Source of the DNA: an uncultured Pseudomonadota bacterium | GTDB lineage: Bacteria > Pseudomonadota > Alphaproteobacteria > Rs-D84 | DNA length: 64,000 nucleotides | Direction of reading: 5' to 3' | Assembly: GCA_902790415.1 (NCBI GenBank) | Contig: CADARU010000002.1 | Span: 62,974-126,973 of the forward strand | In this document: positions 5,338 to 26,920 of the stretch, one piece after another | Numbering within the stretch: position 1 is the stretch's first letter | How the letters are laid out: each line of letters opens with the position of its first letter | Translations under genes and position numbers: made by a program | The notes under the pieces: model-generated | Database searches by the model: none | The model's input: the letters and a program-made list of their open reading frames with translations, nothing else | Told to the model about the DNA's origin: nothing

Positions 5338-7110
5338 ATGAATATGTTAGATTCATCTTTTCTGTGTCTAGATATTGGAACCAGTGGTGTTCGTGGCATT
5401 GCACATCGCGTAAAAAATGCACACTTGGATAAAAGCGCATATTATTCTGTTGATAATGACGATATTGTTTTGGCCTTGAAAACGGTTATAGATGAACTGG
5501 AACAACAAATTGGCGAACATTTTGACGATGCATATATAACCGGTGATTTTGGGGCATCTTTCTTTACAATGACCGCGAAAAACACCGTATGGCAATCGGA
5601 ACATAAATTTACGGCACTGGACATACAAAACCAAATATCACAAATAAAACACCCTGATGATTTTTATCCGTTGCACATAATCCCTATGCGTTATGACAGT
5701 CCTAAATTACGCAATATGAGCACACCTGTGGGATACAGCGATAAACAATTATTGGCCACATATTCAGGGTTGTATTTCGAACGCGCCAGATTAGATGAAA
5801 TCATGTCGATTCTGCGTGGCGCGCATATCCAGGCAACATCTTTCTTTGCGCCGCATTTCTTGGAATCCAAGGTTTTTAAATCACGTGATGAAACCGCAAT
5901 GTTCATAGATTTTGGCGCATCGGGAACAACGTTATCACTGTGGACACGGCGCGGACCGGTTTGGTACACAACAATCACAAATGGTGGAAACGATTTAACC
6001 ACCGAAATATCTGACCGCATGAGTATATCATTTGCCGAGGCCGCCCGCATAAAACATTCTGTTGCCGATATGACAACCCAAGAAATGGCACGCTTTATCC
6101 CGGCCGACAGTCAATATGGTTTTTCTGTTGCGGATATAAACGAAATCGTTATTCCGTTTTATACCAATTTGGTTGAGCAAATCAAAAATGAAAGCGCGCC
6201 TTTTTTAGAAAAATACAATCCAACAAAAATTGTGGTCAGTGGTGGCGCAACCAGAATAAACGGCTTGATTGACTTTATTGCCCAAGAATTAAATGTTCCA
6301 ATTATAAATCGTGGCATAGATGCGCCAGCGCGCGCCTTGGCCGCGTATGTTTGGGCTTGTCAAAAACCGCACAGAATTGCATATATTGCACGCATGCAAA
6401 GAATAAAAAAACGCATGAATAAAATATTAAAAATATTCAAACGCAGACACAAAAAGACACAACCGCGTTTTGTTCCCATTATGCCCAGTACCCTGTGTTT
6501 TGATATGAGCGCACCTGAAACATATACAATGTTCAAATCATCTGGTATATCTGCGATACATGTTGATATAATGGACGGCTTTTATGTGGACAGAATCGCC
6601 GGCAGCTTGGATGAATTAAACGCAATTCGTACACAATGGAACGGTCATTTGCATGTACACCTTATGACCGAAGCACCAAACGCATGGGCATCTGGCGCGA
6701 TTGCGAACGGTGCAGATACGGTGATATTGTCAACAAACACTTCCGGTCTGCGTGAAGCAATTCAAACCGTAAAAAAGTCCGGAAAACGTGTTGGAATTGC
6801 GCTAAACCCGGAATCTTCGGTATTAATATTAAAAAGGGTTTTACGCGATTTAGATGAAGTTATGATTATGGCTGTAAATCCTGGTGCGGCCGGTCAAGAA
6901 TTCGACCAACGTGTTTTGCAAAAAATAACTATATTAAACGAAACCAGAAAACGCCATAATTTGAAATATACAATATCTGTTGATGGCGGAATAAATTCCC
7001 AAACCGCCCAGGCCTGTTGGAATGCCGGTGCTGATTTGCTGGTCAGTGGTTCTTATTTATCCGGCGCACCTGATTTTCCATTGGCGGTACAAAGTTTACT
7101 TAAAAAATAA
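5338..7110 (+). CDS. ftsA: FtsA fused in frame to a ribulose-phosphate 3-epimerase-like domain
   Basis: aa 1-~375 are actin-fold FtsA (LDIGTSGVRG, DFGASGTT, GGNDLT, VVSGGATRINGL) ending in a basic amphipathic tail RMNKILKIFKRRHKK. aa 382-590 (from the ATG at 6481) align with Rpe: IMPSTLCFDMSA, IHVDIMDG, VHLM, MAVNPGAAGQEF, SVDGGI, AGADLLVSGS. There is no stop codon between the two parts. Confidence 0.8.
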   Translation: MNMLDSSFLCLDIGTSGVRGIAHRVKNAHLDKSAYYSVDNDDIVLALKTVIDELEQQIGEHFDDAYITGDFGASFFTMTAKNTVWQSEHKFTALDIQNQISQIKHPDDFYPLHIIPMRYDSPKLRNMSTPVGYSDKQLLATYSGLYFERARLDEIMSILRGAHIQATSFFAPHFLESKVFKSRDETAMFIDFGASGTTLSLWTRRGPVWYTTITNGGNDLTTEISDRMSISFAEAARIKHSVADMTTQEMARFIPADSQYGFSVADINEIVIPFYTNLVEQIKNESAPFLEKYNPTKIVVSGGATRINGLIDFIAQELNVPIINRGIDAPARALAAYVWACQKPHRIAYIARMQRIKKRMNKILKIFKRRHKKTQPRFVPIMPSTLCFDMSAPETYTMFKSSGISAIHVDIMDGFYVDRIAGSLDELNAIRTQWNGHLHVHLMTEAPNAWASGAIANGADTVILSTNTSGLREAIQTVKKSGKRVGIALNPESSVLILKRVLRDLDEVMIMAVNPGAAGQEFDQRVLQKITILNETRKRHNLKYTISVDGGINSQTAQACWNAGADLLVSGSYLSGAPDFPLAVQSLLKK

Positions 7111-19358: not shown

Positions 19359-19514
19359 TCAATAACTTTTATTTAAATTTTAATAACACAATTTATACAA
19401 CGCAACTATTTTCGTTCCCAAATACAACATGTAAAAACCGGAATTATATCTTGATTTTCTTGGTTTTTTGTGCAATAAAGGCAACAAGAAAAATATTAAC
19501 AAGGATGAAACGAT

Positions 19515-22472
19515 ATGGCAAAAGAAACAAAAAACAAAATTGTAAATGTTACAAATGCCTATGGTGATAAAAATACAACCGCACAAATATTGGTTCAAAA
19601 TAAAATTAAGTATACACCCAAAGTATCTGTTATTATCCCGGTATATAACACCGAATTATATTTACGCCAATGTATGGATTCTGTGGTAAACCAAACGTTG
19701 CACGAAATCGAAATTATTTGTGTTGATGATGGTTCAACAGATAAATCCTTGGAAATATTGCAAGAATATGCCGCGCACGATGAACGTATAACTATTTTAA
19801 CACAAAAGAATCTGCATGGCGGTGTCGCACGTAACGCGGGTATTGCGGTTGCGCGTGGTGAATACCTGTCTTTTTTAGACAGTGACGATTTTTTTGAACC
19901 GGATATGTTGGCGGAAATGTACACCCTGGCATCCAAACAAAATTTAGATATGTGCGTTTGTAACGCAGACGTGTATGACGAACCCACAAAAAAATTTCAA
20001 CAGGCGGGATATATTCTGCGGTATAATTATATTCCAAAAGATGCCCCTGTATTTAACAGAACGATTTTGCGTGAAAATATTTATAAATTCACTAATCCGG
20101 CGGTATGGACCAAGTTATATAAACGCGATTTTGTAACCAAGAATAAATTATATTTCCAAAACTTATACACATGTAACGATATTGGTATGGGGATGTCTGC
20201 GACATCATTGGCAAACAGAATATCTGTGGTAAACCAAGTATTTGTTCATTATCGTCGCGGTTCTAATGTTCAGGTTACCAAGAAACGTGGCAAAACCGCG
20301 ATAAATATTGTTCATGCGTATTACTATATTAAACATCATTTGACCATTGGAAAATTGGACGGGTTTATAAAAACATTGAATAACCAGATTGCCGAAAACA
20401 TCCGTTGGGAATTATCACGTTGTAATTCATCCGAAGCAAAAAGATTTAAAAAGCAAGCAAAAGAACTAATGCAAGACGATTACCAAATATTTAAATCTTG
20501 TTTCCACAAAGATAACTTTATTGTTCATTTTGTCAAACACATGCGTGAAATCATAAAATCTAAACGCGTAAAAAAAATGGGCATGTATGAAAAATTTTTA
20601 TATCACAACATTCGCAAAAACAGCGTATTACTGGTAGAAGCCAACAGTTTTCATGGCGAATGTTTACCCGGGATGGCAAAATACTTTTTAGATTTAGGTT
20701 ATAACGTTGATGTTATCATGAATCACAATGAATTCAGATTAAATCCTTTTTGTAATTTCAAAGATGCGCGGGTGCAATTATTTGGCATGGACGTTGAATC
20801 TATAAAACGAATTTTGGACAGTGATATTATTGAAAAATACGAACACCTATATTTCAATTCAGATAGAATCTTTGATGTCAACAAAAACGAATTAGTCAGT
20901 TATTATAACTATTTCGGCACAGATTTAAAATTACCCGAAGAAAAAGTTATTAACATGGTTCATACCATTGAAAAATATGACGAAAACAATTTTTCACACC
21001 CTGCATTTTTTGGTGTAACATTATCTGAATTACCAATAATCAAAGGTAAAGATTTACAAATTGTTAATACGCATTATTTTGGTGAATTTGCCAAACATAC
21101 AAAAAACGATAAATTGGTAAAATTTGTATGTGTTGGAAACATTGAAAGCAAACGTAAAAACCACTCGTTATTATTCGATGCGATTGACTATTTGTTATCC
21201 AAAGAAATAACAAATTTCAAAATCAATGTTATTGCGCGTGGCGGTAATTTATTAATTCCTGAAAAATACCAAAAGTTCATAGAATTCCTTGGCCGATTAG
21301 ATTACAAAGATATGTATGCCAACGTCAATGATTCAGATTTCTTTTTAACATTATTAGACCCGGAAAACCCGGACCACAACCGATATTTAACCAGTGGCAC
21401 CAGTGGCAGTTATCAACTAATCTATGGTTTTTCCAAACCATGCTTAATATGTGATAAATTTGCATGTAATATAAATATGATAGATAAAAATAACGCAATA
21501 CTGTATAAAAAGAATTCTGATTTGGGGCGTGCAATGCAACGCGCCATTGAAATGCCTACAAAAGAATATCAAGAAATACAAAACAACATACAATCTTTGG
21601 CGCAACAAATATATGACCAATCTTTGAAAAATCTTGGAAATTTATTAAAAACGGAAACATGCCAATTTGATAAAAACACATTTATCAGTTTGGGTGAAAA
21701 TTGTTTTGTTCGCACAATATTGGTCCGGCATCACACAAAATGCAAACGTTCCGAAGGTGAATTATCTTACCCGTTTGATTTAAAGGTTTGTTATATCAAA
21801 ACTGTGATAAAATTATTACAATCTGATTTCAGGGGGTATTTTGATGATTTATCATGGGACGATACGAAAAAGATATGGGTTAACAAGAAATTAAACATCA
21901 TGTACAATCATGACTTGGATTGTGATACCAAAGAAAAACTGATTTCGCGTTACACCACCAGAATCGAAAATATGCGCATGCTAAAAAATAAATCTGGTCT
22001 GGTTTTCGTGGCCAGTACGGTCAATCCAGATATTAGTATTGACGACATAAACCAACTTTATACCGTTCTTAAATCGACATATCGGGATATAAAATTTGTG
22101 TTTATAAATATTTCTAAATCAGAATTGAAAGACATCAAGAATTTAAATTCTGAAATATTCTATAAACATATTCCAAACCCATATCCAAATTATTGGGGTG
22201 AATGGTACAAGGAAGAATTTTATAACTCGAAATCTGGGGTTGAATTTGAATGTGCCTGCAACGAATTTGTCCGCACATCCGCAAAAACAACCACAGAAAA
22301 CGGCCATCCGTACAACGAACCAGGCAAAAAAAATACCGAACCACACCAGGCGAGATTATTTTGGTGGAAAATTGGTAAAACACTTAAATATTTGTGGGAA
22401 TGTCCGATACGTATTTATGATAAATACACCAGGGTAACCAACAAAATAAAACAAATTAAAAATGGCAAATAA
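19515..22472 (+). CDS. multidomain glycosyltransferase (GT2 + GT-B-like + DUF1796-like C-terminal region)
   Basis: N-terminal GT-A/GT2 signature VSVIIPVYNTELYLRQCMDSVVNQT..IICVDDGSTD and DxD LDSDD. The central region resembles a GT-B C-domain. The C-terminal ISLGENCFVRT...LSYPFDL resembles DUF1796. Confidence 0.7.
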   Translation: MAKETKNKIVNVTNAYGDKNTTAQILVQNKIKYTPKVSVIIPVYNTELYLRQCMDSVVNQTLHEIEIICVDDGSTDKSLEILQEYAAHDERITILTQKNLHGGVARNAGIAVARGEYLSFLDSDDFFEPDMLAEMYTLASKQNLDMCVCNADVYDEPTKKFQQAGYILRYNYIPKDAPVFNRTILRENIYKFTNPAVWTKLYKRDFVTKNKLYFQNLYTCNDIGMGMSATSLANRISVVNQVFVHYRRGSNVQVTKKRGKTAINIVHAYYYIKHHLTIGKLDGFIKTLNNQIAENIRWELSRCNSSEAKRFKKQAKELMQDDYQIFKSCFHKDNFIVHFVKHMREIIKSKRVKKMGMYEKFLYHNIRKNSVLLVEANSFHGECLPGMAKYFLDLGYNVDVIMNHNEFRLNPFCNFKDARVQLFGMDVESIKRILDSDIIEKYEHLYFNSDRIFDVNKNELVSYYNYFGTDLKLPEEKVINMVHTIEKYDENNFSHPAFFGVTLSELPIIKGKDLQIVNTHYFGEFAKHTKNDKLVKFVCVGNIESKRKNHSLLFDAIDYLLSKEITNFKINVIARGGNLLIPEKYQKFIEFLGRLDYKDMYANVNDSDFFLTLLDPENPDHNRYLTSGTSGSYQLIYGFSKPCLICDKFACNINMIDKNNAILYKKNSDLGRAMQRAIEMPTKEYQEIQNNIQSLAQQIYDQSLKNLGNLLKTETCQFDKNTFISLGENCFVRTILVRHHTKCKRSEGELSYPFDLKVCYIKTVIKLLQSDFRGYFDDLSWDDTKKIWVNKKLNIMYNHDLDCDTKEKLISRYTTRIENMRMLKNKSGLVFVASTVNPDISIDDINQLYTVLKSTYRDIKFVFINISKSELKDIKNLNSEIFYKHIPNPYPNYWGEWYKEEFYNSKSGVEFECACNEFVRTSAKTTTENGHPYNEPGKKNTEPHQARLFWWKIGKTLKYLWECPIRIYDKYTRVTNKIKQIKNGK

Positions 22473-25321
22473 TGGGGGATATTATGGCAAACACACTAAA
22501 ATCAATCAAACAAACAACCGAATTGATAGTATCCCTGACATCGTACCCGGCACGTATTGGTACAATTAATCAAACAATAGAAAGTTTATTAAATCAAACA
22601 AAACCCGCCGACAAGGTTATTTTATGGTTGGCCCCCGAACAATTTCCAAATCGTGAAAAAGATTTACCAAAACAACTATTAGATTTAACAAAAAGTGGTC
22701 TGACCATTGATTGGTATCACGATATTCGTTCTTATAAAAAACTAATTCCAACGTTACGTAAATATCCTGATGCAATTATTGTAACCGCAGATGACGATAA
22801 CATATATTCACCAACATGGCTTGAAAAACTCTATAACAGTTATAAAAAATACCCAAATGATATTCAGGCCCATCGTGTTACCAAATTTTATCATGATAAA
22901 TATGGGTGGCATACAATTGCGGGCGGTAAAGAATATTGGCCAGGGGCAAGTTATTTGAATAAACTGGTTGGTCTTGGTGGTGTATTGTATCCCCCACATT
23001 GTTTTTATCAAGATATTTTGAACGAAGATTTAATAAAAGAATTGGCGCCAACAAATGACGACCAATGGTTCTGGTTACAAGCGGCGATGAATAATGTGCG
23101 TGTTCGGGTTGTTGAAAATCCCGAAATTGAAGCCAACTATGTTCCTGGCACCCAAGAAACCGGTTTAACAAAAATTAACGATCATGGTCAAAATCTGTTT
23201 TGGCGCGATTTTAAAAAACTGATGAACTATTATCCAAAGGCGCAAGAAATTTTACTGACCGAGGCAAAACAACATAAAATAAATAGACCTTTTGTCGTAC
23301 CATATAAAAAAGAATTGGAACAATGGTATACAAAATTATTTGGTCCAATCGATTTAGAACACCCAAAAACATTTAACGAAAAAATACAGTGGTCAAAAAT
23401 ATATGATTCTACACCAATAAAAACGCGATTGGCGGATAAATATCTGGTTCGTGATTGGGTCGCTGAAAAAATAGGAAAACAATATTTGATACCATTATTG
23501 GGTGTTTATAATTCTTTTGAAGAAATTGATTTTGATAAATTGCCAAAGCAATTTGTTATCAAATGTAATCACGGTTGTGGTTATAATATTATCGTCAAAG
23601 ATAAATCTAAGTTAGATTTGGCATATGTAAAGGAAAAACTTGATTATTGGATGCGACAGAATTTCGCCTTCAAGTTTGGCACAGAACTGCAATATCGTGA
23701 CATAGAACCCAAGATTGTTATTGAAAAATATATAGAAAATACAAAATCACGTGATGGTGATTTATATGATTATAAATTCTGGTGCTTTAATGGCAAAGTA
23801 AAATACATTCAATTTTTATCAGAAAGAAATACGAACGGCTTAAAAATGGCCTTTTATGACAAAAAATGGCGCAAACAACACTTTGTATACAGCCATCCAC
23901 TAGACCAAAAAAACATAGAAAAACCGTCAAATTTGAAAGAAATGATTAAATTAGCCGAAAAACTATCTGCCGGATTTAATCATGTTCGTGTTGATTTTTA
24001 TCGTTTGGATAATGGCCAAATATACTTTGGCGAAATGACGTTTACATCTGCATCAGGTATGTGTAAATGGAACGATGAAAATATTAATCAGTATTTTGGC
24101 GATTTGTTTAAATTACCAAAAATGGCCTATAACATAAATAATGGCGCATATTATAAGGTACCAAAGCACAGAATTATTAAGCCATACCTACTGTTTCCAT
24201 ATTATTTATTGGCAAATATATGGTTACGTAATATTTCATTACCGTTGGCAAAGTTTAAAAAACACATTAAGCAGGTCATGTATTCACACAGCCGCCGTGG
24301 TCAAATAGATAAATTAAATGCAAAAATAGATAACATTGCACAATCAGTGTTAAATATTAGCACACGCACAGATTCTGTTATTCAAGACGTTGAAAAAATT
24401 GGTGTTTTTTATACTTACGACAATCAAACCAACTGGGCAATTTCGCATAAAATGACAGAAATTACTAATGTTCCGGATTTTGAATCTCGGTTTATGAAAT
24501 TGATAACTGGCCTGCCGTTTGAAAGTAAAGTTACAATAACAAATATTATTGCCAGATTACAGATGATTAAAGATGGCAAACATCATGATTTGTTTAACAA
24601 TCAAGAAAAACTGTTATTAAAACAAGTGTCTGATTTTGAGAATTCTATATTGAAAATATCTGATAACAAGTTTTGGTGTAACGATTATTTATTGCCAATA
24701 AATCATTTCGAACCCAGTGTATTCTTTTATAAACATGGTTTGGATAAATTAGACAATATAAAATATTTTCAATCCAAGGCAATATTAGATGTCGGTGCGT
24801 TTATTGGCGATAGTGCGCTAATTTTATCACCGTTAACTAAAAATAAAGTTTATTGTTTTGAAGGGTGTCAAAAAAATTATGATTATTTGAACCAAACAAT
24901 ACAAATGAATAACTTGAAAAATATTGTCCCGGTAAAATCGGCACTTGGCGATTATAACGGAGAAATAGAATTATTCTACTATGGTGGCGCAACATCTGTT
25001 GATAAAAACATGGTAAAAAAATCAACAAAATCCGAAAAAACTCAAATTATGCGTCTGGACGATTATGTTCGCGAACACAGAATAAACGTTGGTTTGATTA
25101 AGGTTGATATCGAAGGTGCCGAACAATCTTTCTTGCGTGGCGCACGTAAAACAATCGAAAAATACAAACCAACGTTGTTAATTTCAATTTATCATAATGT
25201 GGACGATTTTTTGGACATAAAACCAATGATAGAAAGTTGGAATCTGGGATACAAATTTAAAGTATTCAAACCGACAATCGGTTCTGTTTCTGCGGAAACA
25301 TTGTTGATATGTGAACAATAA
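22472..25321 (+). CDS. multidomain glycan-modifying enzyme (GT-A-like + TupA-like ATP-grasp + FkbM methyltransferase)
   Basis: aa 20-260: SLTSYPARI...VTADDDNIY, glycosyltransferase-like. aa ~285-545: PKTFNEKIQWSKIYD...IKCNHGCGYNIIVKDKS, TupA-like ATP-grasp pattern. aa ~740-949: DVGAFIGDSAL...IKVDIEGAEQSFLRGA, FkbM family. The ATG at 22484 with GGGGGA Shine-Dalgarno is the likelier start. Confidence 0.7.
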   Translation: MGDIMANTLKSIKQTTELIVSLTSYPARIGTINQTIESLLNQTKPADKVILWLAPEQFPNREKDLPKQLLDLTKSGLTIDWYHDIRSYKKLIPTLRKYPDAIIVTADDDNIYSPTWLEKLYNSYKKYPNDIQAHRVTKFYHDKYGWHTIAGGKEYWPGASYLNKLVGLGGVLYPPHCFYQDILNEDLIKELAPTNDDQWFWLQAAMNNVRVRVVENPEIEANYVPGTQETGLTKINDHGQNLFWRDFKKLMNYYPKAQEILLTEAKQHKINRPFVVPYKKELEQWYTKLFGPIDLEHPKTFNEKIQWSKIYDSTPIKTRLADKYLVRDWVAEKIGKQYLIPLLGVYNSFEEIDFDKLPKQFVIKCNHGCGYNIIVKDKSKLDLAYVKEKLDYWMRQNFAFKFGTELQYRDIEPKIVIEKYIENTKSRDGDLYDYKFWCFNGKVKYIQFLSERNTNGLKMAFYDKKWRKQHFVYSHPLDQKNIEKPSNLKEMIKLAEKLSAGFNHVRVDFYRLDNGQIYFGEMTFTSASGMCKWNDENINQYFGDLFKLPKMAYNINNGAYYKVPKHRIIKPYLLFPYYLLANIWLRNISLPLAKFKKHIKQVMYSHSRRGQIDKLNAKIDNIAQSVLNISTRTDSVIQDVEKIGVFYTYDNQTNWAISHKMTEITNVPDFESRFMKLITGLPFESKVTITNIIARLQMIKDGKHHDLFNNQEKLLLKQVSDFENSILKISDNKFWCNDYLLPINHFEPSVFFYKHGLDKLDNIKYFQSKAILDVGAFIGDSALILSPLTKNKVYCFEGCQKNYDYLNQTIQMNNLKNIVPVKSALGDYNGEIELFYYGGATSVDKNMVKKSTKSEKTQIMRLDDYVREHRINVGLIKVDIEGAEQSFLRGARKTIEKYKPTLLISIYHNVDDFLDIKPMIESWNLGYKFKVFKPTIGSVSAETLLICEQ

Positions 25322-25322
25322 T

Positions 25323-25348
25323 AAAATCCCCTATTCAGGGGATTTTTT
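25323..25348. terminator. intrinsic terminator between convergent genes
   Basis: AATCCCCT-ATTC-AGGGGATT followed by T6. Confidence 0.75.
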
Positions 25349-26192
25349 ATGATGCACTGTTTGCATAGATAAAGTCAAAATAACGTACTGTACCGGTTGC
25401 GGTATAATCTATTGTTACAACATCACCTTTTGCAACAGGTATCCATGGTGTAACCCAATTTCCAACCGAAATCGCGAACATCATTGAACGCATATTATGC
25501 GCAGATGTATTTATTAAAGATGCATATTGTCCCGCCGCGGTTGCAGATATACCCAAACTTAAATACCCATCTGCTGGTGCGGTATATTGTGTACCACTGG
25601 CACCTAAATTTAATGCGATAAATGAACTTGATGGCATTGCCAGATGTGATATTTCTGCTTTGCCGGTTGCACTAAAATTGCTGGCATTTTTTAAATCGTT
25701 TATATCTGTGTTGATACTATCAATATCACCCAATGCATTTATTTTGGTGGTAACTTCATCTATTTCATCATGTATTGCGGCAATCCGCGCCAATAAATCT
25801 GTTGTTGATTCTTTATCAGCAATGTCGGCATATTGCGCACTTAGCACCCCCAAATTGTCTTTCATATCTTTTAGAACTTCCATCATATAGTTCATATCTT
25901 GATTTAATGTCGTTGGTTCTATTTTAACCATTGGTTGATAATCTGTGATGCGTGCTGGCGGTAAATTGCGCGCAATAGTGATAGTGTCTGATACGGTTGG
26001 TGCGGTTTCAAAAACAACCTTGCCCCCAGAATACGGAATATCTGCATTTTCACCCGCGGACGTTCCAACGATTGTATATCCGGTTGCGGCATCCGTATTT
26101 TTGGTAACAACAATATCTGTATTTTGAAAATACGGAAAATTGAACATAAATTCTGTTGTTGTCCCGTCCCCCATATAAGAAACTCTTGGCAT
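25347..26192 (-). CDS. phage tail-fibre-like protein (T7 gp17-type N-terminal domain)
   Basis: Start MPRVSY at 26192 with AAGGAG Shine-Dalgarno. YMGDGTTTEFMFNFPY..DIVVT....ITIARNLPPARITDY....LNQDMNYMMEVL follows the T7 tail-fibre N-domain pattern (Y.LDGS...F.IPFEY...VVVT...I.L.R.T....VDF....LN). Then a coiled-coil and a C-terminal beta-rich domain. Confidence 0.55.
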   Translation of the reverse strand: MPRVSYMGDGTTTEFMFNFPYFQNTDIVVTKNTDAATGYTIVGTSAGENADIPYSGGKVVFETAPTVSDTITIARNLPPARITDYQPMVKIEPTTLNQDMNYMMEVLKDMKDNLGVLSAQYADIADKESTTDLLARIAAIHDEIDEVTTKINALGDIDSINTDINDLKNASNFSATGKAEISHLAMPSSSFIALNLGASGTQYTAPADGYLSLGISATAAGQYASLINTSAHNMRSMMFAISVGNWVTPWIPVAKGDVVTIDYTATGTVRYFDFIYANSAS

Positions 26193-26213
26193 TTTTACTC
26201 CTTTTGTTATAAC

Positions 26214-26240
26214 AAAAAAAGCCCCTGCAATCGCAGGGGC
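26214..26240 (-). terminator. intrinsic terminator inside the 5' leader of the tail-fibre-like gene
   Basis: GCCCCTGC-GATT-GCAGGGGC followed by T7 on the minus strand. It ends 22 nt before the tail-fibre start codon. Confidence 0.7.
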
Positions 26241-26284
26241 ACAAAAAAAACGGCGACAAAAAGTCATCCGCTTTGGTTATGTGT

Positions 26285-26313
26285 ATTATATCACAAACCG
26301 CATAAAAAAACAA
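26285..26313 (-). promoter_or_regulatory. sigma70-like promoter (TTGTTT-17-TGATATAAT)
   Basis: On the minus strand: -35 TTGTTT (26313-26308), a 17-nt spacer, and an extended -10 TGnTATAAT (-10 at 26290-26285). Confidence 0.5.
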
Positions 26314-26407
26314 CAACAAAATCAGACATGATACATTAACGCATTTCTTATGTTGTAAATTTGTTAAGTTGCTCGAACTGCGCTTCGCTTGTTCTCAACT
26401 GCTATTT

Positions 26408-26486
26408 TGTCGGACCCTGGGGTCCTTATCTTTCGCGACTATACCAAAATTAAAACCGGGTCATACCCGGTTTAAATTTTGGTAGC
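26408..26486 (-). repeat. 79-nt repeat copy A (conserved box + terminator + tRNA-like ACCA end)
   Basis: TGTCGGACCCTGGGGTCCTTATCTTTCGCGACTATACCAAAAT..hairpin..TTTTGGTAGC. It parallels copy B at 26671-26749. The two hairpins differ in sequence but both fold. Confidence 0.7.
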
Positions 26487-26574
26487 CGCACAAGGGATTG
26501 CTTCGCCACCTTGCAAAATTTGCCTGACGGCAAACCGGCGTTATTCCGCCTTTTTGCTGCGGTTCGGACCCCTG
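26480..26574 (-). pseudogene. tRNA(CAT) 3'-half pseudo-copy interrupted in the T-loop by a ~63-nt hairpin-rich insert
   Basis: The minus strand reads CAGGGGTCCGAA (12/12 match to the neighbouring tRNA), then the insert CCGCAGCAAAAAGGCGGAATAACGCCGGTTTGCCGTCAGGCAAATTTTGCAAGGTGGCGAAGC, then AATCCCTTGTGCGGCTACCA, followed by a terminator. A further fragment, CGAATCCTTCGCCGCA, is at 26588-26603. Confidence 0.6.
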
Positions 26575-26670
26575 TGCCGGTGTCCAATGCGGCGAAGGAT
26601 TCGCTCGGCATAAATGCCTACGCGGCAACCGTAACGATTTCACTGCGTTATACTTGTGAAATCTACTTGT

Positions 26671-26749
26671 TGTCGGACCAGGGTCCTCATCTTTCGCGAC
26701 TAAACCAAAATAAAAAACGACCACAAGGGTCGTTTGTTATTTTGGTAGC
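26671..26749 (-). repeat. 79-nt repeat copy B (overlaps the terminator and 3' end of the tRNA gene)
   Basis: See copy A. The hairpin is ACGACC-ACAAG-GGTCGT with a T run on the minus strand, immediately 3' of the tRNA ACCA. Confidence 0.7.
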
Positions 26750-26817
26750 GGCGAAGGGATTCGGACCCCTGACCAAAGGATTATGATTCCTCTGCTCTAC
26801 CACTGAGCTACGCCGCC
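26743..26817 (-). tRNA. tRNA with CAT anticodon (elongator Met, or Ile2 if lysidinylated)
   Basis: RC is GGCGGCG-TA-GCTC-AGTGGTA-GAGC-A-GAGGA-ATCATAA-TCCTT-TGGTC-AGGGG-TCCGAAT-CCCTT-CGCCGCT-A-CCA. All stems pair; positions 1:72 form a G:U pair. Confidence 0.88.
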
Positions 26818-26920
26818 AATGCGTCAAATTATAACAAACATTTTTCAAAATGCAAGAATTTCTGCTAGGTTACTTCGCCCTATTGAAAAACCCCATAAAA
26901 AGGTGTATAATACACACCTG

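Follow-up and report, generated by a model that had tools for sequence, protein, structure and literature searches.

A repeat array behind a tRNA(CAU) gene of an uncultured rumen alphaproteobacterium, probably of the E. coli tRNA-linked repeat kind

The locus behind the tRNA(CAU) gene of the window (the whole 64,000-nucleotide stretch of DNA that was analysed) is probably a tRNA-linked repeat (TLR) array of the E. coli kind, carried by an uncultured rumen alphaproteobacterium of the Ca. Enterousia clade. The initial annotation had described, on the minus strand, a tRNA(CAT) gene followed by a terminator, a conserved box, three fragments of the same tRNA, a second terminator and a second box. 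All of these elements were found at their minus-strand positions, and the observation was correct throughout. The box and the paired terminators, like the split 3' half of the pseudo-tRNA, are modules of a single repeat family. At tRNA-Met the window contains a fused A+C unit (26701-26480) and, after it, a truncated one (26440 to ∼26357), arranged as follows.

26743..26817, minus strand: tRNA(CAU) gene (ARAGORN; Rfam tRNA, 66.4 bits)
26704..26746, minus strand: terminator hairpin 1, a long stem-loop (inverted-repeat search and terminator scan)
26662..26701, minus strand: box 1, the 5' module of unit 1 (repeat search, cross-genome comparison)
26588..26701, minus strand: A-type part of unit 1 (alignment A1, RNAalifold)
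26481..26597, minus strand: C-type part of unit 1 (covariance model R1, 75.9 bits, E = 5.7e-17)
26480..26499, minus strand: 3' end of unit 1, AATCCCTTGTGCGGCTACCA, a divergent copy of the tRNA's final 19 nt (read from sequence)
26442..26484, minus strand: terminator hairpin 2 (inverted-repeat search, terminator scan)
26357..26440, minus strand: truncated unit 2, consisting of box 2 and the first hairpin of a B/D-type core (cross-genome comparison)

ARAGORN and the Rfam tRNA model confirmed the tRNA gene, which ARAGORN labels tRNA-Met, with tRNA-Ile2 as a possible alternative; the same sequence is present in ∼20 related genomes. Its last 19 nt, AATCCCTTCGCCGCTACCA, are the segment copied by the array, and the first unit starts 41 nt past the tRNA ACCA on the same strand, as it does in all related loci. 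Two copies of the box were indeed found (26682-26701 and 26421-26440), both without mismatch to AGTCGCGAAAGATNAGGACC; 0.01 copies would be expected in the window by chance, and 0/100 shuffles reached two. The repeat is longer than this, 39 nt at 90% identity, and its copies are 261 nt apart. Box 1 contains the closing strand AGUCGCGAAAG, a GAUGAG motif and the hairpin GGACC-CU-GGUCC, whose 3' strand together with GA is the T-arm 5' half of the tRNA (GGUCCGA). The second box copy is present as annotated, but it opens a further (third) unit, truncated, that runs from 26440 to ∼26357, where likeness to full units stops at the start of the next gene's promoter region. That gene, downstream of the array, has its own promoter and leader.

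The three tRNA fragments between the first box and the second terminator were located as CGAATCCTTCGCCGCA at 26603-26588, CAGGGGTCCGAA at 26574-26563 (12/12 identical to the tRNA) and, after an interval of 63 nt that was likewise confirmed, AATCCCTTGTGCGGCTACCA at 26499-26480. In the A-type part, the box is accompanied by hairpin 2 (long and covarying, its loop 12 nt), by hairpin 3 and by a 3' strand that resembles the tRNA in degenerate form (CGAATCC-TTCGCCGCA). The C-type part consists of the T-arm 5' half copy CAGGGGTCCGAA, a three-way junction (strands GCAAAA/UUUUGC, GGCGG..CGCC and UUUGCC..GGCAAA), a T-stem-like hairpin and the tRNA-like 3' end. In that 3' end the first 8 and last 7 nt of the tRNA 19-mer are kept and the 4 middle nt are replaced by 5 changed nt, which abolishes a C:C mismatch with AGUCGCG. 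The 222-nt stretch had been proposed to close through an acceptor-like stem; the closure is supported, but the stretch is not one primary unit, being a fusion of an A-type (26701-26588) and a C-type (26597-26481) unit that also occurs at five related loci (L007, L012, L013, L019 and L025). Nor does the split in the T-loop mean that something was inserted into a defunct piece of tRNA: the whole family shows it as a constant part of its design, and so do E. coli tRNA-linked repeats.

Units of the family follow one order: a 5' strand AGUCGCGAAAGAU that pairs with the unit's own 3' end, GAUGAG, a hairpin carrying the T-arm 5' half, an exchangeable structured core (interchangeable types A, B, C, D and E) and a tRNA-like 3' end made up of the T-loop 3' half, T-stem 3' strand, acceptor 3' strand and ACCA, after which a terminator hairpin that pairs with the ACCA closes the unit. 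The pairing of AGUCGCG with UGCGGCU was reproduced as 7 pairs, two of them G:U. When 26480-26701 was folded alone, this acceptor-like closure appeared in both the MFE and the centroid structure (-82.1 kcal/mol, z = -3.15, 0/200 shuffles), and it agrees with the closing stem of the family consensus. In a fold of 26400-26820, the 3' strand of the closure paired instead with the identical AGUCGCG of box 2, across the second terminator hairpin. The 3' strand thus has two possible partners, box 1 and box 2, depending on the span that is folded, so folding alone cannot choose between them. For stand-alone C, E and fMet units several closing pairings fit, for example GGGAUU/AAUCCC or UGUUGGG/CCCCGCA.

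Both terminator hairpins are real and longer than annotated, with arms of 19-20 nt (26704-26722/26728-26746 and 26442-26461/26465-26484) that are 95% complementary and include the ACCA. In hairpin 1 the outer stem is formed by the tRNA's ACCAAAAU and AUUUUGGU, and the core (26715-26735) with its U-run is intrinsic-terminator-like; hairpin 2 has a terminator-like core at 26453-26473, the same outer stem and a different inner stem. Structure is kept while sequence changes, as the initial annotation had stated; one instance is a compensatory C:G to U:A change in the same-species variant L003. The terminator scan scored both hairpins as bidirectional terminator-like sites and gave 8 such sites in the region against 1.4 expected. 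These hairpins could by themselves be the function of the locus, with tandem terminators shielding the next gene from the very strong promoter of the tRNA and the DNA between them serving as spacer. The excess of terminator-like sites, the hairpin at the end of every unit, the layout shared with E. coli rrnB (5S, T1, rrB, T2) and the downstream gene's own promoter and leader all fit such a role. A spacer, however, would preserve neither covarying helices nor an invariant 20-nt box, and a T-arm 5' half that changes with the tRNA would not be retained in one either; strains with a single hairpin also exist. We therefore regard a role in termination only as very improbable.

The helices of the family covary. 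In the C-type alignment A4, 90.7% of cells are paired and 19/28 pairs are altered on both sides (0/500 shuffles), with a covariation score of 0.373 against ≤0.071 when partners were slid; A4 was fitted to the model structure and is to that extent biased toward pairing. The A-type alignment A1 has 97.2% paired cells and 9/32 pairs altered on both sides, and its covariation score was reached by 0/500 shuffles. Between species, helix P2 changes from GCAAAU/AUUUGC to ACAAAU/AUUUGU. The B-type consensus has an 11-bp closing stem, AG.U.GCGAA.GAU with AUC..UUCGC.GCU, followed by the ACCA tail.

The same architecture had been claimed for the fMet locus of the window, and this was borne out. A tRNA-fMet gene (41247-41323) lies just before the sister locus, which comprises two near-identical copies:

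41326..41512, plus strand: fMet sister locus, hairpin and C/E-type unit (R1 match 41372-41484, E = 0.02)
42262..42456, plus strand: second near-identical fMet hairpin and unit (R1 match 42316-42428, E = 0.011)

Model R1, made from Met units only, detected both fMet units where they were expected (E = 0.011 and 0.022). The T-arm halves and 3' end of the fMet-locus unit match tRNA-fMet, 17/18 positions of the tRNA 3' end being matched by the fMet units. The two copies form direct repeats of ∼190 bp that bracket a GNAT acetyltransferase gene (41657-42172).

Conservation in relatives had been named by the initial annotation as a test against decayed att debris, and it is present: at least 20 related alphaproteobacterial genomes from rumen or gut (Ca. 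Enterousia clade) have the family behind tRNA-Met(CAU). In 15/18 genome matches and 7/11 metagenome matches the box follows immediately on tRNA-Met and its hairpin, the rest being GC-rich chance matches; at box loci the flanking PagL and UDG proteins are 52-70% and 73-87% identical to those of the window. In a sample drawn independently of the box, through PagL homologues, units occurred in 6/7 species groups. Most full units in relatives finish with the exact 19-mer AATCCCTTCGCCGCTACCA, of which E-type units of distant species retain less, and four hairpin types with a common outer stem recur among the genomes. At greater distance the species groups carry another tRNA-Met, 77 nt long, and the first hairpin of their unit holds GGGGGUUCAA, the T-arm 5' half of that tRNA. 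The tRNA-derived parts of the units follow three different tRNAs. R1 also detected the distant E-type units where expected (E = 0.0026 to 0.24), and its matches at E < 0.1 were confined to tRNA-linked sites. Horizontal spread, and not purifying selection, could account for some of the high sequence identity between species. The arrays also account for a practical difficulty, the interruption of assemblies at such loci.

Integrating elements offer another source for such sequences. Elements that entered the 3' part of tRNA-Met could have brought a replacement 3' end and terminator, and only inert att remnants would now be left. tRNA-Met is a proven integration site: when related genomes were checked for elements at this gene, as the initial annotation had advised, integrase islands were found, and L010 and L020 carry islands of 3.5-4.2 kb that encode a tyrosine integrase of 473 aa (Phage_integrase 1.6e-22, Arm-DNA-bind_3) and lie between direct repeats of 44 nt, TCATAATCC...CTACCA. 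Arm repeats of the islands (TCTACACA.., TTTACAC) adjoin unit 3' ends in L007, L008, L017, L023, L037 and L058, and some strains have no units. The repeat in the units, however, is 19 nt from the T-loop, whereas the island att in the same genomes is 44 nt from the anticodon loop. Moreover, unit interiors are conserved and covary across species whose flanking proteins are only 52-70% identical, the split-T-arm design follows three tRNAs and recurs in E. coli TLRs, and the 1-2-3 tandem series with a period of ∼174-182 nt (unit plus hairpin) fits unequal crossing-over rather than an integrase. Viral contigs carry neither the box nor the tRNA end in a comparable setting: none has the tRNA end, and the single box match is a GC-rich chance match within a coding region. 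Megablast against phage records gave no match to the locus, and a phage origin was dropped on these negatives. Between the repeats in 26357-26742 neither a recombinase gene nor element cargo was found. Inert debris is accordingly decidedly unlikely as an account of the array.

The arrays turn over between strains. Strains of one species have one (L042), two (L040/L048) or three (L046) unit copies, and relatives overall have 0-3; in a second species a unit is precisely present or absent between identical hairpins (L061/L064 versus L062/L063), and in L037 and L038 a core of ∼90 nt is swapped within 100% identical flanks. Same-species variants that have no unit were found behind tRNA-Met (L003) and behind tRNA-fMet (L072), and the units are dispensable in some strains. 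Such precision could mean that the units are small non-autonomous mobile cassettes, or parts of island attachment arms, moved by integrases in trans or by recombination, their structure serving the element. The core swap falls exactly at boundaries that resemble a T-loop (..CCGACA and AATCCC..), genomes with far-apart proteins share a 20/20 identical box, and at the fMet locus a GNAT gene sits between two hairpin-plus-unit repeats. In L008 an attR fragment is fused to a unit core exactly at GGTCCGA, and L023 has the order tRNA, hairpin, C unit, arm repeats, cargo, attR, hairpin and B unit, so its C unit could be part of the left end of the island. Against mobility, copies occur only behind the cognate tRNA (two boxes in the window, and R1 at E < 0.1 tRNA-linked only), terminal inverted repeats are lacking and most arrays have no recombinase gene inside or adjoining. 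E-type units occur without any island cargo, the islands of L010 and L020 have no unit at their tRNA-proximal end, and ordinary homologous recombination among hairpin, box and 19-mer suffices for every rearrangement seen. We consider the cassette explanation unlikely.

A further candidate was a tmRNA-like molecule, which could be one-piece and reduced or have the permuted two-piece form of Alphaproteobacteria. The order 3' strand-ACCA, hairpin, complementary 5' strand is that of permuted ssrA; some A-type units contain GUU GCC GCG UAG (Val-Ala-Ala-stop); L032 gave a weak match to Rfam tmRNA_permuted (11.8 bits); and GGUCCGAC is similar to GGAUUCGAC, the D-loop motif of tmRNA. The Rfam match lies far under the gathering score of 47, however, and ARAGORN, run on the window and on 24 related loci, reported no tmRNA. 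In the closing stem the pair is U3:G70 and not the G3:U70 required for alanine charging, and the Val-Ala-Ala-stop frame is unconserved, becoming GCC ACG CAG or GAC GCG CAG with changes that track a base-paired stem. Since the units are also dispensable and variable in copy number, the tmRNA interpretation is effectively refuted.

Other searches of the array defined it further. Rfam gave no relevant family in the array at gathering level or at E ≤ 10, and ARAGORN and the Rfam tRNA model (to E ≤ 10) reported only the genuine tRNA, with no cloverleaf in the units, whose likeness to tRNA is limited to the T-arm halves and acceptor 3' strand. No ORFs of note were found within 26357-26742; coding potential was set aside, the ORFs over the array being short and unconserved and the Val-Ala-Ala-stop frame tracking a stem. 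No sigma-70-like promoter was predicted on the minus strand within the array. A hammerhead-like core (GAUGAG, hairpin and CGAC, compared with CUGAUGA, stem II and GAAA) was rejected for lack of C3/U4 and A14 equivalents and of an Rfam ribozyme match. An integron attC-like nature of the hairpins and a guide-RNA or bridge-RNA role for the split matches to the tRNA were both set aside: no integron integrase, IS110, TnpB or other partner gene adjoins the array, and the two tRNA-like segments have the sense of the tRNA.

Taken together, the tRNA-linked repeat reading is the one that we favour, and the unit most likely gives an RNA that arises by read-through and is processed by virtue of mimicking a tRNA end. 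By analogy with E. coli rrA/B/F, units would be transcribed from the tRNA promoter by read-through of leaky terminator hairpins. They may then be excised by tRNA-processing enzymes, by RNase P at the 5' side and by 3' trimming at the tRNA-like end, because the closing stem with ACCA would mimic an acceptor stem. With a good intrinsic terminator ahead of each unit and no internal sigma-70-like promoter, transcript levels could be very low. Homologous recombination among the repeated hairpin, box and 19-mer would allow arrays to grow and shrink and cores to be exchanged, and the tRNA-like 3' ends may double as secondary attachment sites for integrase islands.

The TLR design is thus present in a distant lineage, where it tracks whichever tRNA precedes it and its helices are kept by compensatory change. 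The alphaproteobacterial arrays give comparative leverage beyond the near-identical E. coli copies, in the form of a consensus structure, a division into constant and variable parts, and natural variants with 0, 1, 2 or 3 copies or with swapped cores. They also call for caution, in that such repeats should not be scored as prophage att scars. More tentatively, and with what we judge a modest chance, TLRs may be old and widespread structured RNAs that mimic the acceptor/T-arm end of the preceding stable RNA, and not a peculiarity of enterobacteria. If so, the 5' handle (closing strand, GAUGAG and T-arm-half hairpin) and the 3' handle (the tRNA end) would be constant and the core cassette-like, a layout that would suit an RNA loaded or processed by tRNA enzymes, the core setting specificity. 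Such an RNA might, for example, act as a regulator or sponge coupled to transcription of the tRNA, or as a decoy that diverts tRNA-targeting integrases or nucleases from the real gene.

TLRs were described in 1978, first behind E. coli tyrT and behind 5S rRNA; E. coli has 22, and the origin and function of most are not known (PMC8144298). They are defined as lying directly 3' of a tRNA or rRNA gene in the same orientation, with their last 18-19 bp equal to the gene 3' end, in 1-5 tandem units that are co-transcribed and processed (PMC8144298). The array described here agrees in position and orientation, in its copy of the 3' end (exact in most relatives, diverged in the window) and in tandem number. 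The closest counterparts are the 178-bp tyrT repeats (RtT, RF00391), which share tandem units of ∼130-180 nt just 3' of a tRNA on the same strand, a closing stem with T-loop remnant, T-stem and acceptor 3' strands (GGGGAAGGAU/AUCCUUCCCC there, AGUCGCGAAAGAU/AUCCCUUCGCCGCU here), and GAUGAG followed by a hairpin with the cognate T-arm 5' half plus CGA; in tyrT the hairpin carries AAGGUUCGA, the T-arm 5' half of tRNA-Tyr. The layout of box 1 corresponds to positions 15-47 of the Rfam RtT consensus. In tyrT and here alike, the tRNA 3' end (the last 19 nt in tyrT) comes after a second T-stem-like hairpin, whose loop is GAAGCG..AGCG..AAU. The present repeats differ from tyrT in having an ACCA-pairing terminator hairpin of their own after every unit, several exchangeable core types (A-E) and an alphaproteobacterial rather than enterobacterial host.

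They differ also in sequence. Rfam RtT (gathering threshold 45 bits) gave no match at E ≤ 10 in 26200-26900 or in L032 1-330, whereas the same model scored E. coli tyrT at 133-137 bits, and R1 scored one E. coli TLR at only 10 bits (E = 0.013, filters off). Plain alignment to RtT with shuffles was significant for 1/7 units, and so for one subtype alone (L021_C, z = 4.0, 2/500); the window unit was not significant. Descent from E. coli RtT by sequence was set aside on this weak covariance-model cross-match and single alignment, and what we claim is the shared design: a design in common with E. coli TLRs is supported, and common descent is not demonstrated by these sequence comparisons.

The E. 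coli small RNAs rrA, rrB and rrF, which lie between T1 and T2 of rrnA, rrnB and rrnD (Stenum et al. 2021, PMC8144298) and are transcribed via read-through of a leaky terminator (PMC8144298), offer a second parallel. The order read from the sequence of E. coli rrnB is 5S, T1, rrB, T2, and in rrA, rrB and rrF as in the window a stable-RNA gene is followed by a terminator, a unit with a copy of the gene 3' end (18 nt in E. coli) and a second terminator. Unlike the window units, rrA, rrB and rrF mimic 5S rRNA and not a tRNA, and are single copy per operon; in E. coli they bind Hfq and CsrA via GGA motifs. A third comparison is with the tandem att arrays and the integrative-element accretion (CIME/ICE) known at tRNA and tmRNA genes, reportedly set out by Williams in 2002 and 2003. 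Such arrays likewise have direct repeats of a tRNA 3' segment behind an intact tRNA, a hotspot for integrase islands in relatives, and presence or absence among strains. The units described here differ in carrying neither recombinase nor cargo, in repeating 19 nt from the T-loop and not 44 nt from the anticodon loop, and in having interiors that are conserved, structured and covarying.

The minus-strand tRNA(CAU) gene is followed by an array of terminator-like hairpins, box copies and tRNA fragments, which are laid out as follows.

Features of the tRNA(CAU) array
26817-26743, minus strand: tRNA(CAU) gene
26746-26704, minus strand: hairpin 1, with 19-bp arms and a terminator-like core; tRNA ACCAAAAU paired with AUUUUGGU
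26701-26662, minus strand: box 1, AGTCGCGAAAGATGAGGACCCTGGTCCGACAA
26603-26588, minus strand: tRNA fragment CGAATCCTTCGCCGCA, inside the ~180-nt stretch after box 1
26574-26563, minus strand: tRNA fragment CAGGGGTCCGAA, a 12/12 match to the tRNA T-arm
26499-26480, minus strand: tRNA fragment AATCCCTTGTGCGGCTACCA, inside the ~180-nt stretch after box 1
26484-26442, minus strand: hairpin 2, with the outer stem of hairpin 1 and a different inner stem
From 26440, minus strand: box 2

The box, the tRNA fragments and both hairpins are present as the initial annotation described them; the box pattern occurs twice versus 0.01 copies expected, and the array region contains eight terminator-like sites versus 1.4 expected. 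The acceptor-like closure proposed there, AGUCGCG/UGCGGCU, was recovered in the MFE and centroid structures of 26701-26480 folded alone (z = -3.15), and in a longer-context fold the identical strand of box 2 competes for its 3' strand. Units behind tRNA-Met (each a box or 5' strand, T-arm-half hairpin, core and tRNA-like 3' end) were sorted by core into types A, B, C and D. The 222 nt in the window consist of fused A and C units, a fusion also found at five sampled loci (L007, L012, L013, L019, L025), and box 2 opens a unit that breaks off at ~26357, at the start of the next gene's promoter. The T-loop of the tRNA(CAU) gene itself (26757-26763, minus strand) has the sequence UCCGAAU and thus a C at position 55, a site occupied almost universally by U (pseudouridine 55). 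This T-loop is identical in all ~20 genomes with this tRNA(CAU); in more distant relatives, the T-loop of the 77-nt tRNA-Met is the usual UUCAAGU. At one sampled locus (L015, minus strand, oriented positions 5596-5646), a second, partial copy of the tRNA-Met 5' end, 25 nt long (GGCGGCGTAGCTCAGTGGTAGAGCC), stands directly upstream of the intact tRNA.

Conservation in relatives had been set as one of the tests against decayed att debris. The 20-nt box was found directly behind the same tRNA-Met and hairpin at 15 non-chance genome loci and 7 metagenome loci. In genomes with the box, PagL and UDG are 52-70% and 73-87% identical to the window proteins, a divergence at which unconstrained intergenic DNA is no longer expected to be alignable. 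Each unit in the array behind the tRNA closes with the tRNA's last 19 nt, AATCCCTTCGCCGC(TACCA), and is followed by a hairpin of one of about four types. The box and split pseudo-tRNA are thus parts of a conserved repeat family.

The tRNA-derived parts of the units change with the tRNA they stand behind. The first hairpin of box-type and C units ends in GGGUCCGA, where the tRNA itself has GGGGUCCGAAU. A second sample, drawn via PagL homologues and therefore independent of the box, contained species at 63-68% PagL identity with a different, 77-nt tRNA-Met; behind it lie a hairpin and a unit of another type, E. The first hairpin of the E unit finishes with GGGGGUUCAA, which is that tRNA's T-arm 5' half. 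Units of the same design stand behind tRNA-fMet in the window (41247-42456, plus strand); these contain GGUGGUUCA and finish with TTCCATCCCCCGCAACCA. The T-loop split noted in the initial annotation is therefore a constant feature of the repeat family and not damage in one broken copy, as the same split tracks other tRNAs.

Features of the tRNA-fMet locus
41318-41512, plus strand: block 1, CAACCA, hairpin, unit, CAACCA
41657-42172, plus strand: GNAT acetyltransferase gene, bracketed by the two blocks
42262-42456, plus strand: block 2, CAACCA, hairpin, unit, CAACCA

The two fMet blocks are near-identical, at ~190 bp each, and both are followed by similar GTTCGAAAG...GAAAATTGC sequences. The GNAT gene has the appearance of a cassette caught between two tRNA-linked repeats. 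In L072, a strain whose neighbouring DUF374 protein is identical, a plain terminator, and no unit, comes after tRNA-fMet.

The array could also be read as pure terminator duplication, given the terminator-like hairpins; the units between them have a structure of their own. When folded as single sequences, A, B and D units repeatedly took a cloverleaf-like shape, in which the box 5' strand and the tRNA-like 3' strand form a closing stem, ACCA is free and three arms branch. RNAalifold on nine B units returned an 11-bp closing stem (AG.U.GCGAA.GAU with AUC..UUCGC.GCU). Among ten aligned A units, 97.2% of cells were paired and 9 of 32 pairs showed two-sided change (e.g., CAC/GUG to UGG/CCA), with a covariation score of 0.246 versus at most 0.047 for slid partners, reached by 0 of 500 shuffles. 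A covariance model of the C family, R1, built from eight Met-linked units, scored 75.9 bits on the window's C copy and also detected the window's two fMet-linked units (E = 0.011 and 0.022) and further units in more distant species (E = 0.0026 to 0.24), every one of these matches sitting exactly behind its tRNA. The C-family alignment, which was fitted to R1 and includes one weak, probably spurious plus-strand match, had 90.7% of cells paired, two-sided change in 19 of 28 pairs, and a score of 0.373 versus at most 0.071 for slid partners, again reached by 0 of 500 shuffles.

Within one species with identical PagL protein, tandem E units number one (L042), two (L040, L048) or three (L046), with a period of ~174-182 nt, and L041 has a partial duplication. 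In another species, a unit plus one hairpin occurs in L062 and L063 and is precisely missing from L061 and L064, the flanks being otherwise identical, and one sampled species group (P0089) is without any unit. Two strains of the window's closest sampled relative (L037, L038) match at 100% from the tRNA through hairpin and box, and again from AATCCC on; between box and AATCCC, a B core in one strain stands where the other has an A core. L003, a variant contig of the window's species, has a compensatory C:G to U:A change in hairpin 1 and a different sequence after it. Presence or absence, copy number and core thus change between strains, and the units are dispensable and turn over quickly. Homologous recombination among the repeated hairpin, box and 19-mer can yield all of these changes.

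tRNA-Met is a real integration site, and relatives do carry integrated elements there: L010 and L020 have islands of 3.5-4.2 kb that encode a tyrosine integrase of 473 aa (Phage_integrase, Arm-DNA-bind_3, HTH_17) and have a 44-nt repeat, running from anticodon loop to CCA, on either side. This gives the att-debris reading its setting. The box and unit come after the distal 44-nt repeat, and are therefore part of the native flank; the segment copied in units is 19 nt from the T-loop and differs from the island repeat. Alternatively, the units could be a non-autonomous cassette or island-arm element. A second island type (TCTACACA../TTTACAC arm-like repeats, GNAT/APH cargo) abuts unit 3' ends in L007, L008, L017, L023, L037 and L058, so that unit ends seem to be secondary landing sites, or some units seem to travel with island ends. 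The units contain no genes, and a search of phage records and viral contigs found none carrying them. A tmRNA reading was rejected.

One flank of the array encodes PagL, UDG, a 209-aa protein and gyrB; the other holds a tail-fibre-like ORF and two glycosyltransferase-domain proteins of ~950-985 aa. DNA identical to the window's is present in rumen metagenome assemblies, and box matches fall among rumen and gut genomes titled Ca. Enterousia, 'Alphaproteobacteria bacterium' or 'uncultured proteobacterium'. The 'orphan' tail-fibre-like ORF (25347-26267, minus strand) probably starts at an ATG at 26192 (MPRVSYMGDGTTTEF...) preceded by GGAG, and over residues 27-111 it matches phage tail protein PHROG 1640 (E = 1.7e-15). 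Upstream (26193-26330, minus strand) are a promoter of the TGATATAAT type and a leader that contains two terminator-like hairpins (e.g., 26240-26221, GCCCCTGC..GCAGGGGC plus T-run); a comparable leader precedes a 45%-identical homologue in L016. The segment ~19500-26300, between the tRNA-Met array and a DNA_alkylation gene, contains the tail-fibre-like gene and the two multidomain glycosyltransferases (~950-985 aa) and has a G+C of 0.32-0.34 versus ~0.38-0.44 for most of the remaining first 41 kb. It appears to be a variable island site, because L037 has nothing but island arm repeats and an APH kinase gene in the corresponding slot. Two of the more distant species have serine recombinase (Resolvase) genes within a few kb of their tRNA-Met/PagL loci (L061 1-1669, L065 4570-5169). 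Short-read assemblies of the window's species (L003, L006, L070-L076) repeatedly break in or beside the tRNA-Met and tRNA-fMet arrays, within ~160-260 nt of the flanking gene, probably owing to the repeats and to strain variants coexisting in one sample; window-type and L003-type junctions are both present in ERZ1029115.

Promoter prediction found no internal promoter in the array. Units would be transcribed by read-through from the tRNA promoter, and the RNA may be freed by tRNA-processing enzymes that recognise the acceptor-like closing stem and ACCA tail; homologous recombination would keep and reshape the array. With its conservation, covarying structure, tracking of the tRNA, tandem variation and link with dual terminators, the array is genuine and conserved; the description that fits it best is a new, alphaproteobacterial variant of the tRNA-linked repeats (TLRs).

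E. coli has 22 TLR units at ten loci, 1-5 per locus, most without known function, and read-through produces rrA/B/F, which are located between terminators T1 and T2 (PMC8144298). The rrnB order of 5S, T1, unit and T2 is that of tRNA, hairpin, unit and hairpin at the window array. The likeness of the tyrT repeats exceeds the class definition: the tyrT repeat, as we read its sequence, has a closing stem GGGGAAGGAU/AUCCUUCCCC, then GAUGAG, then a hairpin with the T-arm 5' half of tRNA-Tyr as its 3' strand (AAGGUUCGA), further 3' a hairpin with a GUCA-type loop, and then a second T-stem copy with loop GAAGCG..AGCG..AAU, closing with the tRNA end. The Rfam model of the tyrT repeats (RtT, RF00391) gave no match to the units at E <= 10, and membership in that family fails; R1 reached no more than 10 bits, on one E. 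coli unit, and plain alignment to RtT was significant for one subtype only. We therefore assign the locus to the TLR class because it has the features that define the class and shares its design, not on proven common descent. TLRs as a kind are already known; new here is the comparative signal of structure, tRNA tracking, and copy-number and core-swap alleles, which makes the old question of TLR purpose more tractable.
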